The position numbers and the translations under genes are program-made. Shown here one piece after another: positions 55-23,683 of a stretch of DNA of 64,000 nt. The notes beneath the pieces are model-generated. The model was not told where the DNA came from. It saw only the letters and a list, made by a program, of their open reading frames with translations, and did no database searches. The DNA comes from Chrysomallon squamiferum (taxonomy: Eukaryota; Animalia; Mollusca), in the NCBI GenBank assembly GCA_012295275.1, contig CM022665.1, forward strand, positions 19,778,001 through 19,842,000. The letters are read 5' to 3'. Each line of letters begins with the position of its first letter. The first letter of the stretch is position 1.

Positions 55-3000
55 TGGAACTGTTGGCTGTGTCTATGGTGAGAGGGGGGTTTTCAGCAGT
101 GAAGTCTGGGGGCTTCACATCTGTTGTGTCTGTAACTTTGGGTACAATGTGAGGCAGAGTTTTTGCCTGTTGCTGAAAAGCCTGCAGACTGTGAAGACCC
201 TGTGGAAACAGATATAAAAATTAATTTGAGAAACACTGCTATAGTATCACCTATCTGGAAGATGAATAATATGAACAATTTAACATGTTTTTGTTTTTAA
301 CTCACCTGCAGGTTTGCCATCATCAGCGTCTGTCCATTAGCAGTGGGGATGATGACTGCAGGTATTGAATTTGTTGTTGTCTGTCCAGGAGGTGGGTAAC
401 GCCGTGGCCGTCCACGTCCTCTTTTTACTACTGTAAGACACACTCACACATATCACTTTACATAAACACATGTGACTTTATATAAACACATATTATTTTA
501 CATAAACACAGTATTTTACATAAAAACATTACTTTACAAACACATGTTACTTTATATAAACACATTTTATTTTATATAAATATGTTACTTTAAATAAACC
601 GATTACTTTACATCAATACAAGTTACTTAACACAAACATGTTACTCAACACAAATATGTATTACATATTATTACATAAAAAGGTATTAAACTATTACATA
701 AACACATTATATATCATTATATGAACTCCCTTCACATTAGTTCATTATCACATCTACAACTATCATACACTACACAAACATATCATCATTTATAACCAAA
801 AAACCACCAGAAAATTTTATCTTAAATATTTTATGAAAATCCACAATGAATTTTTTGGTTTTCAAAGTAAAGTAACATAACAGCTGAACAAAAATGCTTT
901 CACACAACAGGTTTGTAATGTGCTACCCTTTGATATACAGAAAAGAACACTTTATTTCGTAAACTGAAAGGGGTTGCCCTTTAGTTTAAATCCTTAAGTA
1001 CAAATCTTAGATTAAAAGCTTATATTAAAACCTTAGACTAAAGGCTTTGATTAAAGTCTTAGATTAAAAACCTTAGATTAAAACCTTAGATTAAAGCCTT
1101 AGATTAAAACTTAGATTAAAGGCTTATATTAAAGCCTTAATTAAAGCCTTAGATTAAAACTTTAAGAAAAATCTAAGTTTAAAAGCCTATATCAAAGCCT
1201 TATATTTATGCCTTCGATTTAAACCTTAGGTTAATGCTTTAGATTAAAACCTTAAGCTGTATCCTAACCAGGCACGAGCAACACGACACTATTTATATCC
1301 AAACCAGATGCCACTATGACAGTATCAGTTTTGAAACTTTGATCCACTACTGAATACAAGTTAAGCCTATCAGGGTATGTTTTAAAATGTTCTATCATCT
1401 TAATGTGTTTGTGTTTGGAGGGGGAGCTGCTCACCTTCCCCCAAGCCTGGGTAGGATTGGATCTTCCAAGAAGCTTATACCTGCATGTTATTAATAAAAC
1501 ACATACATTACTTACTAAATAAACCTAGAGTTTTCCAATATTCTTCCAGGCATCTTCTTTTCTGTTGTTATCTTCATATTTTGACAAAGAACAATCATAA
1601 AGTACTGGAAACATCTGAACAAGATGGATGAATTGTTTACCTTTGATTTTCATGAACTGGGGGACATAATCTTGTTTGTGATTGGTTAATATATTTTAGA
1701 CACTCGTGTGGTGCAACAAAAAACAGAAAAAATTCCTATCAGTATTGTGTCACACGCTGAGCTAGCTCAAACTGTCGTGCTTTATGTGTGCAGTTAGGAT
1801 GCTGCATTTGAAATCAGTGCTTTCTAAAAAAAAAATCACTTGAGTCGCAAAGCCCTGATAGGATACAGCTTTAGATTAAAACTTAAGTAAAACCCTTAGA
1901 TTAAAAGCTTACATTAAAACCTTAGATTAAAGCCTTAGATTAAAAGCTTAGATTAAAAGCTAAGATTAAAAGCTTAGGTTAAAAGCTTAAATTAATAAAA
2001 TACCGAAAGGTGAAAATGATGATTCTCTGACGGTTCGGCGACGTTTTATTCCAGACAGGGTGACATCTGGGTCCAAGTCTGGGTTGTCTTCATCTGGACT
2101 GTTGTCTGGCTCCCCATCTGATGGAACCAGAACATCATAATCTGAATAAATAAATTTTAAACTTATATTAAAACCACTTCACTGACTTTTAGAATGATTA
2201 GTTGGTTTAACAAAAAATTTCATTTAATTTGCATAGTGTTCACAATATTTACGTTTCAGCTTTTAATTTTCTCTCTCACCGTATAACACTTTGTTTTTCA
2301 CACAGTCTTACATTTTCACACATTTTCATAAACATTACCTTCTAACACTTTGTTTTTCACACAGTCTTACATTTTCACACATTTTCATAAACATTACCTT
2401 CTAACACTTTGTTTTTCACACAGTCTTACATTTTCACACATTTTCATAAACATTACCTTCTAACACTTTGTTTTTCACACAGTCTTACATTTTCACACAT
2501 TTTCATAAACATTACCTTCTAACACTTTGTTTTTCACACAGTCTTACATTTTCACACATTTTCATAAACATTACCTTCTAACACTTTGTTTTTCACACAG
2601 TCTTACATTTTCACACATTTTCATAAACATTACCTTCTAACACTTTGTTTTTCACACAGTCTTACATTTTCACACATTTTCATAAACATTACCTTCTAAC
2701 ACTTTGTTTTTCACACAGTCTTACATTTTCACACATTTTCATAAACATTACCTTCTAACACTTTGTTTTTCACACAGTCTTACATTTTCACACATTTTCA
2801 TAAACATTACCTTCTAACACTTTGTTTTTTCACACAGTCTTACATTTTCACACATTTTCATAAACATTACCTTCTAACACTTTGTTTTTCACACAGTCTT
2901 ACATTTTCACACATTTTCATAAACATTACCTTCTAACACTTTGTTTTTCACACAGTCTTACATTTTCACACATTTTCATAAACATTACCTTCTAACACTT

Positions 3001-21300: not shown

Positions 21301-23683
21301 TTTTAGTTAGTCTAGTACCTGAAATCAGTTGATTTCTCACTGGTATTTTTTTTTTCTTGCATATTATTTTTTTCCTATATAGCAGACACTGCAAAGATGA
21401 CTATAACTCATGATCTGAATTTTAAATACAAGAAAATAATCTAAATTGAATATGCAATTTAGATTATTCTCTTGTGTTTAAAATTCTGCATGTGGTGATA
21501 TACAGTTAATAATATTCATTTCATAATGGATTTAGTGCAAATCACTAAAACTGAAATGTCCATAAACTGATTTTGTACATTTCAGATGTCATATTAACTA
21601 AAAATACATCATACACATTAGATCTACTCATTGTGCTCTTAGTAAATGTACAGAGATTTTTGAACAAGACATGGTTTTAGTACAAATAAAATATTGTTAT
21701 AATTTCAGTTCTCTGCCTCAGTGTGGCTCGTATCAGCAACTTGAATACTGGGCCAACAACTTTGATGATTTTGCAGTGAGTTAACATTTAGACATTTTTT
21801 AAAAATGGGGTTTTTCTGTAATTTTTTTTTTTTATATATTAAATTATCTTCATTTCATTGTCTTTTTGAAGTAGAAATGTAAGCTGTATTTTTTAACATC
21901 AGTGTAGATTTGTTTTTGTGTTTTCAGGCAGCTGTTGTTGTATTGTGGGATGTTATGGTTGTCAATAACTGGATGGTTTTCCTTGAAGCTTTTAGAAGAG
22001 CCACATCAGCGTGAGTATCACACTAGACATGCGTTTTTTTTTTAATAATAAAATATTACATCTTAGTGATATACCTTTCTCAGAGAGTTGTGTGTGTGTA
22101 TTTCAGACAATGATATGTTTAATTCAGTGATACATGTATGTCAGATAGTGATATGTGTAATTCAGTGATATATGATTTCAGACAATGATATGTGTAATTC
22201 AGTGATATATGATTTCAGACAATGATATGTGTATTTTAGATGGTCATATTTGTACTTCATCTCTTGGTGGTTGCTGGCTGTTGTCATTGTGTTGAATCTT
22301 TTCACAGCTTTGATTCTGGAAGTGAGTTTTGTTTTCTTCCTCATTTGTAGTTTTATTTCGTCAATAACATGAGCATCTTACTGATCTTATTGTCATACAA
22401 CTGTACATTATAGTTATAAATATGATTTTTAACAAGTGATATTTAATTTTTCTTCTGAATGGTAATATTATACACACTGAGTAAAGATTGGTTGGGAAAG
22501 AATTAATCATGATTTAAAAAATAAAAAATTTCAGCTGGCAAAGGTTGACAAATTTTAGCTGGCAGCATTAAAGTTCATTGTTAAAAACCTTAAACTTTCA
22601 ACAAAAATACCCTCCCCCCCACAAACCTCAACAAAGGTTCCAGATATTAGTTAATTTCTGTTGTTTTTTTTTAATTCAGAATTTTATAATGAAATGGGAT
22701 AAAAGTCTGCAGAATATGGGAAGAGAGAGAACTAGGTCTGGAAGCCGTTTTGAAGAATCTACACATCTGATGTCTGTTCATTCTATGTTCAGGTAATATT
22801 GTTCTTGTTTTTTTTAAAACAAAAGTTATAAACTAAATGAAAAGAAAAAAATCCTAGATTAGTCTATTTCAAACACGATGATTTTTAAAAACTGCATCAC
22901 TCAGCATATTAGAAAATTAGAAGTCAACTTTGGAATGTTGACAAAATTAGGTGATGAAATCATTTTAGCAACAAGCATACAGTATCAGAACAGAGGACAT
23001 TTTTGTTTCATTGTGACAAAAACTAAAAAAAATTAAAGATTTTTCTTGCCCTTTATATTATTTACTAGCAATAACATATTTCTCATTGAATAAATCAAAT
23101 CTGTTTGTTGATTATATGGTGCATCATCATGACTACAGTTAAACCAGTTTTTAACACCAACACTGGTGTTCAACTGATTTTTTAATTCACCTGTATTATT
23201 GCCATTCACCTGTATGTATATATATATATATTTTTTTTTTCTGAAAGGGACACAATTGAAATTATAATATGCATATTTATATATAATAACATAAGTGTTA
23301 TAATTTTTTTCTTTTAGATAACATTAAAATTAATTAAAAGAACTAATTAATTTTAGCAGAAAAGAGCACTGGTGGAAAAAAATAGGTGCAACTTTCGAAA
23401 CCCAGTTCATTTTTTGATGACTTTTGTTGTTGTTAATATTATAAAAAAAAAATTATTATTAGGTGACAATATTTAAAATATATTGTGTTTATATAACAAA
23501 GACAGGTCTTCACTCCTAAAAGCTATATCTGATTGTTATTAAGTGGTAAAAACGTAGTAACTAAATTTTTATTAAAAACAAAAATAAAATGTTTCAATTT
23601 TCAGGCAACAGTTACAGGAACCAGCAGAGAATGAACTTCTTGTTGAGCTGTCACAACACAGATATCTACATCTTGACAGATGA
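9337..23683 (+). CDS. TPCN2: Two-pore calcium/sodium channel 2 (endolysosomal TPC2), 26 coding exons, about 827 aa
   Basis: Exons: 9337-9610, 9973-10022, 10436-10512, 10614-10791, 11504-11620, 12043-12149, 13136-13208, 14112-14189, 14306-14396, 14976-15041, 15811-15875, 15961-16070, 17085-17166, 17758-17847, 18059-18178, 18491-18547, 19046-19174, 19433-19482, 20065-20161, 20789-20860, 21099-21175, 21709-21775, 21928-22010, 22240-22321, 22680-22792, 23605-23683 (2484 nt, open frame). TPC2 hallmarks: [24 protein letters not shown], filter [41 protein letters not shown], filter II MVVNNW, LILENF..KWD. Confidence 0.96.
11133..11503 (+). repeat. About 45-bp minisatellite copying the TPC2 exon-5 acceptor
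   Basis: About 8 copies of aatattttacag|gtaaaatgaaaatataaaattattgtataagtaag ending at the real aatattttacag|ggttac junction (11503/11504). Confidence 0.85.
12405..13145 (+). repeat. 40-52 bp minisatellite copying the TPC2 exon-7 acceptor and first exon bases
   Basis: About 14 copies of ttttcag|tgtttt(gttg) upstream of the real ttttcag|tgttttgttgctc (13135/13136). Confidence 0.9.
13250..13850 (+). repeat. 27-29 bp intronic minisatellite (tgtgattctagtatgtaatgtataatg)
   Basis: About 20 copies; source of the spurious [12 protein letters not shown] 13393-13851. Confidence 0.9.
15390..15780 (+). repeat. AT-rich minisatellite (ttaaatatttaaatatgttagtgtgta)
   Basis: Direct inspection, more than 12 copies in TPC2 intron 10. 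Confidence 0.85.
17170..17580 (+). repeat. About 23-bp minisatellite (ttaaatacagtctattgttaaatac) starting just after the exon-13 donor
   Basis: Direct inspection. Confidence 0.8.
18235..18510 (+). repeat. 39-bp repeat copying the TPC2 exon-16 acceptor plus the first ~20 exon nt
   Basis: Unit tgacatgtttattttacag|gtagaactagctattca(a/g)ta, about 6-7 copies, most similar next to the exon. Confidence 0.9.
18700..18970 (+). repeat. 29-bp minisatellite (gttaaataactcatagacactttagtggt)
   Basis: About 9 copies in TPC2 intron 16. Confidence 0.85.
19472..19700 (+). repeat. Degenerate repeat copying the TPC2 exon-18 donor
   Basis: Real tatttacctgc|gtaagtattaaa followed by about 6 variants, e.g. tatttacctgtataagtattaaa (~19673). 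Confidence 0.75.
20320..20800 (+). repeat. About 39-bp repeat copying the TPC2 exon-20 acceptor
   Basis: Units gtgttgatgtttttcaagctatagatgtctaat resemble the real gtgttaatgtgtttttcag|gctatgtctatt (20788/20789). Confidence 0.8.

Follow-up and report, generated by a model that had tools for sequence, protein, structure and literature searches.

Minisatellite-like tandem copies of an intron/exon boundary are known in amphioxus as "mirages" and occur in Adh3, the globins BflGb6 and BflGb9, troponin C, and PGBD5 (PMC3087553, PMC3902484). In the passages of these papers cited here, mirages lie at the 5' or the 3' boundary, have locus-specific units of 10 to 160 bp, carry AG or GT in many but not all copies, and leave normal splicing unaffected (PMC3087553, PMC3902484). 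A 37-bp variable number tandem repeat in intron 7 of human F7 is built similarly in the passage cited, where the first unit spans the exon-intron border, five to nine identical donors follow, and the most upstream donor alone is used (PMC1557585). Minisatellites of approximately 30 bp at exon-intron borders have been described in human genes lying in segmental duplications, with 27 intron modifications counted in the part of that report used here (PMC2812944), and a route of intron gain is documented in which tandem genomic duplication copies exon sequence and creates a new intron (PMC3265369). The arrays described below lie in a window of 64,000 nucleotides of the gastropod Chrysomallon squamiferum (contig CM022665.1, positions 19,778,001 to 19,842,000), where introns of two adjacent genes, TPC2 and an AT-hook gene, carry tandem copies ("echoes") of their own splice junctions.

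The snail arrays resemble amphioxus mirages in lying at both donors and acceptors, in having units private to each locus (29 to 59 nt), in keeping GT or AG in 44 of 62 unused copies ("decoys"), and in leaving main-isoform splicing undisturbed in 5 of the 5 introns within range of RNA. They differ from the amphioxus accounts in their gastropod host and in numbering ten within two adjacent genes, amid many arrays that touch no junction; the amphioxus passages also give no enrichment test (PMC3087553, PMC3902484). The human F7 layout is that of the snail donor arrays 2284-3131 and 19472-19686, but the F7 account, in the part cited, concerns one locus with donors only and is silent on acceptor echoes, which make up 8 of the 11 snail loci. 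Some of the segmental-duplication repeats alter splicing or form new introns according to the portion cited (PMC2812944), whereas none was seen to do so in the snail. The duplication route of intron gain and the snail arrays both begin with a local duplication carrying splice signals, as far as that source is cited here; unlike in that route, existing introns grow in the snail, and the intron positions tested are old (PMC3265369).

A sequence-only reading of the window had listed 11 such loci and did not recognize them as a described genome-wide phenomenon. They are not new in kind, given the amphioxus mirages (PMC3087553, PMC3902484) and the studies of human F7 (PMC1557585), in the parts of these papers cited. 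In the open-access literature, no mollusc report of mirages and no genome-wide junction-enrichment test was found. The reading favored here, with a probability of roughly 75%, is that the echoes are untargeted private minisatellites that happened to straddle a junction and were tolerated. Mirage repeats are thereby recorded in a gastropod, and short introns combined with a high rate of private minisatellites provide a simple null for them.

Arrays match the junctions that they adjoin

For each claimed locus, a 30-nt junction probe was aligned to the adjacent 150 nt of intron, with shuffles and approximately 385 windows from other introns as controls. Ten of the 11 loci scored above shuffles (P of 0.002 for nine and 0.010 for 20320-20800), and in the same ten the score for the own junction exceeded that of all foreign intron windows. 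On an earlier gene model, shuffled introns gave a mean of 0.55 junction echoes, compared with 9 in the real introns. The remaining locus, 3530-3690, is a genuine degenerate repeat (self-similarity P of 0.002 to 0.004) that Tandem Repeats Finder (TRF) does not list; its similarity to its donor falls short of significance (P = 0.12, with 38 of 390 foreign windows equally high). The earlier count of at least 10 echo introns therefore holds for ten loci, with 3530-3690 only weakly tied to its donor.

The firm loci comprise two donor and eight acceptor arrays with units of 29 to 59 nt (Table 1). Exon-side similarity is significant in seven of the ten, which carry 5 to 24 exon nt, whereas the arrays at 4318-4460, 11133-11503, and 22095-22240 hold approximately 0 to 2 exon nt and merely abut the site, so that the description of units with 5 to 25 exon nt was overstated for these three. 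Unit-to-unit comparison of 55 pairs revealed at most weak likeness, with a lowest P of 0.005, the minimum attainable with 200 shuffles, and six pairs of AT-rich units at P ≤ 0.03, and no foreign window matches as well as the own array; units are thus private and look unrelated between introns, as had been stated. The proposed range of ages was also borne out, from near-identical (99%) to heavily decayed. Concerted evolution of inner units, with boundary units left out, is suggested by the alignments.

Two 13-nt arrays in one intron, at 981-1254 and 1871-1995, have nearly the same unit and, by eye, share approximately 15 nt of flank in inverted orientation. This pair is perhaps a small element and an exception to the privacy of units.

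Arrays show no excess at splice junctions

The sequence-only reading had proposed a mutational process targeted to exon boundaries. The enrichment statistics are confined to TPC2 and the AT-hook gene, with ratio intervals that cannot exclude enrichment below approximately 1.5- to 2-fold. In these genes, 26 TRF arrays make up 43% of the intron DNA and are present in 18 of 33 introns; 17 of the 26 touch no junction and had been omitted from the earlier account. A putative 5' untranslated region (UTR) exon was added to the AT-hook model so that acceptor 5411 counts, and the junction statistics were recomputed on this revised model. The seeding null collapsed each array to one unit, leaving 10.5 kb in 33 introns, and placed the units randomly over tolerated positions. 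It predicts 7.56 junction-touching arrays, and 9 of the 26 were seen (P = 0.33); no excess appeared at a junction tolerance of 1, 5, or 15 nt.

A TRF-free k-mer test, which compared recurrence within 200 nt of the 20-mer over the splice dinucleotide with that at non-derived intronic positions (a background that is not independent), likewise showed no excess at three thresholds, with 14/66 against 15.1, 10/66 against 11.1, and 10/66 against 8.8 (ratio intervals of 0.53 to 1.45, 0.45 to 1.55, and 0.57 to 1.96). The earlier gene model gave the same answer (8 versus 7.7 and 9/68 versus 11.8). The comparison set consists of four downstream genes, namely a rhodopsin-type receptor, two membrane-protein genes, and a T-box gene, in which a junction is touched by 1 of 14 arrays versus 1.3 expected; the array 43596-44121, which keeps GT in 0 of 8 listed copies, is the sole echo among these CpG-rich genes. 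Pooling of all six genes at 50-nt tolerance gave a P of 0.0015, which was set aside because the genes differ widely in intron length and array rate. By the refutation test that accompanied the proposal, applied within the two genes, targeting is unsupported.

Several observations weigh against an untargeted origin or limit the case for it. At 15-nt tolerance, 13 arrays lie near a junction versus 9.5 expected (P = 0.10), and at 50 nt the numbers are 19 versus 13.9 (P = 0.03). The mean exon share of the unit is 0.25 rather than 0.5 (12 arrays, P of approximately 0.001, post hoc), which is less exon than chance predicts and indicates that array edges tend to sit at the junction. Array density per collapsed kilobase is 2.9 times higher in the two CpG-poor genes than in their four CpG-rich neighbors (P = 0.0007 if arrays are independent, for two genes versus four), showing that seeding is not uniform across genes; exon CpG observed/expected ratios are 0.39 to 0.41 in the former and 0.76 to 1.05 in the latter, these values and the splice-site scores below having been computed on the earlier AT-hook model with two extra exons. 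With two genes only, power is low and the ratio intervals reach 1.45 to 1.96, and selection removing most junction-spanning arrays could let parity hide targeting. Among the RNA data presented below, five further joints were not displayed, and contigs drop rare isoforms, so that low-level use of decoys is invisible in them.

A transcription-, splicing-, or repair-coupled process that seeds duplications preferentially at exon boundaries, with selection hiding part of the excess, would account for the mild excess within 50 nt, for the several arrays that end 0 to 5 nt from the site with a low exon share, and for the denser arrays in CpG-poor, probably broadly expressed genes. Such a process is nevertheless unlikely in view of the absent excess at 1, 5, and 15 nt and at all k-mer thresholds, the 17 arrays that touch no junction, and the parity in the four other genes; moreover, no targeting would be needed for a low exon share if array edges erode or exon-rich decoys are selected against. 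The low exon share (post hoc) and the CpG-class bias of the arrays are the remaining leads. They could be extended to a genome-wide minisatellite factory in the gene-body-methylated, broadly expressed genes of the snail lineage, with array edges piling up exactly at splice sites, a speculation that appears rather unlikely. Such an edge pile-up, if real, would mean that duplication starts or stops at splice sites or that exon-rich decoys are purged. If it held across the genome, it would provide thousands of natural contests between identical 3' splice sites with the last AG winning, and a direct test of exon definition versus AG scanning would become possible. A genome-wide junction or methylation bias, if shown, would tie transcription-linked chromatin to intron growth.

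The spliced site is the terminal copy

RNA evidence comes from contigs of two runs of one study over 15,800-25,050, with six of the 11 loci lying upstream. It comprises 14 joints, all at the modeled GT..AG sites of TPC2 introns 11 to 24. In the main isoform, the terminal copy is used in all five echo introns of this interval, including intron 15, which has an identical in-frame acceptor upstream. At 3107, 3692, 11503, and 13135, unbroken homology to Gigantopelta supports use of the terminal copy, as does the reading frame at 3692, while at 4318 and 5411 the frame suggests its use. The claim that the real site is the terminal copy is upheld to this extent. A duplication straddling a junction must leave an intact site beside the exon, so that a terminal real site follows from survival for any tolerated duplication.

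The decoys were counted as 62 in-register copies in nine of the arrays listed earlier, hand-picked from the alignment list with off-register matches dropped, and GT or AG is kept in 13/13, 3/6, 0/3, 4/4, 7/8, 13/14, 3/4, 1/6, and 0/4 of them per array. Splice-site scores were obtained with a weight matrix built from the window's own junctions. In 12413-13145, 13 decoy acceptors score 11.1 to 14.1, compared with 12.3 for the real site; in 11123-11504, six score 7.4 to 9.7, compared with 7.5; and 13 decoy donors in 2284-3131 are identical to the real donor 3107. Most copies in 4319-4445 and 18240-18513 have lost the AG, as have the copies best preserved in 20314-20793, which end in AA or AT, with approximately three more diverged copies there keeping AG. 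The "many perfect decoys" of the sequence-only reading are thus found in about half the arrays, most copies elsewhere lacking AG or GT. Its further point, that the spliceosome passes over decoys scoring as high as the real site, agrees with RNA contigs and scores in several introns. The array at 12413-13145, whose decoys include a dozen that equal the real site in strength, is a good natural substrate for studying selection of the last AG.

Loss affects the splice G in 4 of 12 arrays and other G/C at 10 of 38 positions (P = 0.72). The splice G thus disappears no more often than other G/C, a pattern consistent with plain AT-biased decay. That selection acts against decoys by removing this G was considered and is unsupported by the comparison.

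Decoys might instead be functional, by tuning splicing, giving alternative isoforms, or serving as intermediates of intron gain. In 18240-18513, AG is kept only in the nearest decoy, 18451, which lies 39 nt upstream in frame and is identical to the real acceptor at 20 of 20 nt compared; splicing to it would extend TPC2 by 13 residues (18452-18490) without a stop. Intron gain by duplication is also a demonstrated route in the part of the literature cited (PMC3265369, with a model in PMC3087553). A functional role is nonetheless very unlikely, since in every testable intron the joints of both RNA runs fall at the terminal site, the RNA contigs show no use of 18451, the majority of decoys either lie out of frame or lack AG or GT, and TPC2 aligns colinearly with the orthologous Gigantopelta protein.

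A search of metagenomes for relatives of TPC2 retrieved eight loci from distant animals, with no congener among them; across these loci taken together, TRF listed a single small array. The same AG/GT borders of TPC2 exons 7, 10, and 11 are present in L003, L005, L007, and L008 where these are covered, and the introns there are nearly free of arrays. The exon 7 acceptor is the sole echo site within this comparison, the 5' end of exon 9 not having aligned cleanly. No intron gain was seen, and the intron positions tested are old, given that the borders of these three exons are kept in distant animals.

The arrays are real, and a neighboring array varies in length

Two studies supply single DNA contigs that run through 16967-17100, where no difference appears, and through 19472-19686; the assembly may itself derive from one of these runs. 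Where testable, the arrays are thus not assembly artifacts. Length changes between runs at echo arrays are limited to indels of 1 to 3 nt in 20314-20793, and the number of units changes only in the neighboring nonecho array 19713-20016, which is longer by one unit in run X3 and skips 71 nt in run X1. This difference suggests that arrays of such a kind are turning over. Somatic instability is said to have been reported for Adh3 in the original mirage work.

An artifactual origin is extremely unlikely. Copies of the 59-nt unit at 2284-3131 agree at 99%, with a copy number from the assembly alone, and the listed pieces of short-read contigs break inside 18240-18513, 20314-20793, and 22097-22240, as such contigs tend to; the copies in other arrays, however, differ by 10 to 35%, and contigs span the two arrays named above. 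Introner-like elements and miniature inverted-repeat transposable element (MITE)-like elements are dispersed, with one sequence family common to many introns. That the arrays are remnants of one such element inserting at splice sites is scarcely credible, since, despite the unit pair at the shuffle floor, the six pairs at or below 0.03, and the unit shared by the two 13-nt arrays, each unit matches its own junction better than any foreign intron window does, host-gene exon sequence is part of seven units, and no common sequence family was found across the introns of the window.

Proposed origin of the arrays

As untargeted private minisatellites, the echoes would arise through a high rate of seeding by local duplication in short AT-rich introns. 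The first step would be a head-to-tail duplication of 20 to 60 nt, with slippage or repair at short homologies as the probable cause, and the array would then grow and shrink by unequal exchange, in keeping with the length variation of the neighboring array. Collapsed introns average approximately 320 nt, and a unit of approximately 35 nt would have a computed chance of about 30% of covering a junction. A duplication across the junction would leave one intact site beside the exon, in the first copy for a donor and in the last for an acceptor, and the other copies would become intronic; exonic duplications would be removed unless in frame (one in-frame case, 5090-5338). The spliceosome would take the copy beside the exon, as it does in the main isoform of five introns. 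Donor choice would probably follow a first-site rule, as in human F7, and acceptor choice would probably follow exon definition. With age, intronic copies would drift and homogenize while the exon is held by selection, and the exon part and the AG or GT would erode. The arrays would thereby lengthen introns, with no new intron or function seen. Gene predictors can be led astray by arrays of this type, and short-read assemblies can be broken by them at exon borders.

Genes of the window

TABLE 1 Echo arrays, related repeats, and genes in the 64-kb window
Positions	Strand	Feature	Details
2284..3131	-	Donor echo, 59-nt unit, 14.3 copies (as assembled), 99% matches	24 exon nt; real donor 3107
3520..3700	-	Heavily decayed repeat behind donor 3692; echo doubtful	Self-similarity
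4148-4175	-	Two-copy donor echo, 24 nt, weak (P 0.026; 15/389 foreign windows equally high)	AT-hook gene
4319..4445	-	42-nt array adjoining acceptor 4318; AG kept in 0/3 copies	Nearly without exon sequence
4859..4901	-	Two-copy donor echo, 38 nt, firm; beyond the list of the sequence-only reading	
5403..5562	-	36-nt acceptor echo; probable real site 5411 (from frame)	≤21 exon nt; 4/4 decoys with AG
11123..11504	+	47-nt array up to TPC2 exon 5 acceptor 11503	1 exon nt; 7/8 decoys with AG
12413..13145	+	43/51-nt acceptor echo before TPC2 exon 7 (13135)	6-10 exon nt; 13/14 decoys with AG
16967..17100	+	~29-nt acceptor echo before TPC2 exon 13 (17084)	7-12 exon nt; RNA site 17085
18240..18513	+	39-nt acceptor echo before TPC2 exon 16 (18490)	23 exon nt; RNA site 18491
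19472..19686	+	31-37-nt donor echo after TPC2 exon 18 (19483)	8-11 exon nt; GT in 3/6 decoys; RNA site 19482
19713..20016	+	Nonjunction intronic array, 19-nt unit, example of 17 such	Length differs between runs
20314..20793	+	39-nt array, decaying toward TPC2 exon 20 acceptor (20788)	5 exon nt; RNA site 20789
22097..22240	+	37-nt array up to TPC2 exon 24 acceptor (22239)	0-1 exon nt; copies with AG; RNA site 22240
43596-44121	+	26-nt array filling nearly the whole intron of the first membrane-protein gene	Starts at donor; 3 exon nt
34..5410	-	AT-hook/zinc-finger (myoneurin-like) gene, 5' part, leaves window	Homology to Gigantopelta P0007
4898-5410, 4173-4317, 3693-3851, 3265-3405, 3108-3164, 2004-2141, 306-430, ~34-199	-	AT-hook gene exons	
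9238..23683	+	TPC2 (two-pore channel 2) coding region	26 exons, 860 aa, single open frame
23684-25048	+	TPC2 3' UTR	RNA contigs
27050-37478	-	Rhodopsin-family receptor gene	7tm_1
40584-46949 and 49256-53262	+	Two adjacent genes, likely single-pass membrane proteins	
57046-61846	+	T-box gene	PF00907

The TPC2 protein is 74% identical across 834 aa to P0003 of Gigantopelta aegis and 65% identical to the Haliotis protein. Downstream of its coding region, RNA contigs from both runs stop at 25048 in overhanging A-rich ends, and an A run is present in the DNA at this point too; this position may be a poly(A) site or a site of internal priming.

In the minus-strand gene, the AT_hook domain (PF02178) was matched, and a Gigantopelta "myoneurin-like" zinc-finger protein is a homolog. 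Two exons of the first model, 1269-1366 and 1435-1480, are absent from this homolog and were dropped. The first coding exon contains an in-frame 36-nt tandem repeat at 5090-5338 on the minus strand, with approximately 6 to 7 copies of 12 residues. The process behind the intronic arrays would have produced it, and an exon would tolerate it since the frame is kept.

The receptor gene holds a 1.2-kb array of a 27-nt unit at 34981-36194, distant from every junction. The two membrane-protein genes have cysteine-rich outer parts and long last exons and look paralog-like by eye; a Pfam search with one exon of each gave no match for either. The T-box gene has the least array cover of the six genes, at 6% of its intron DNA.

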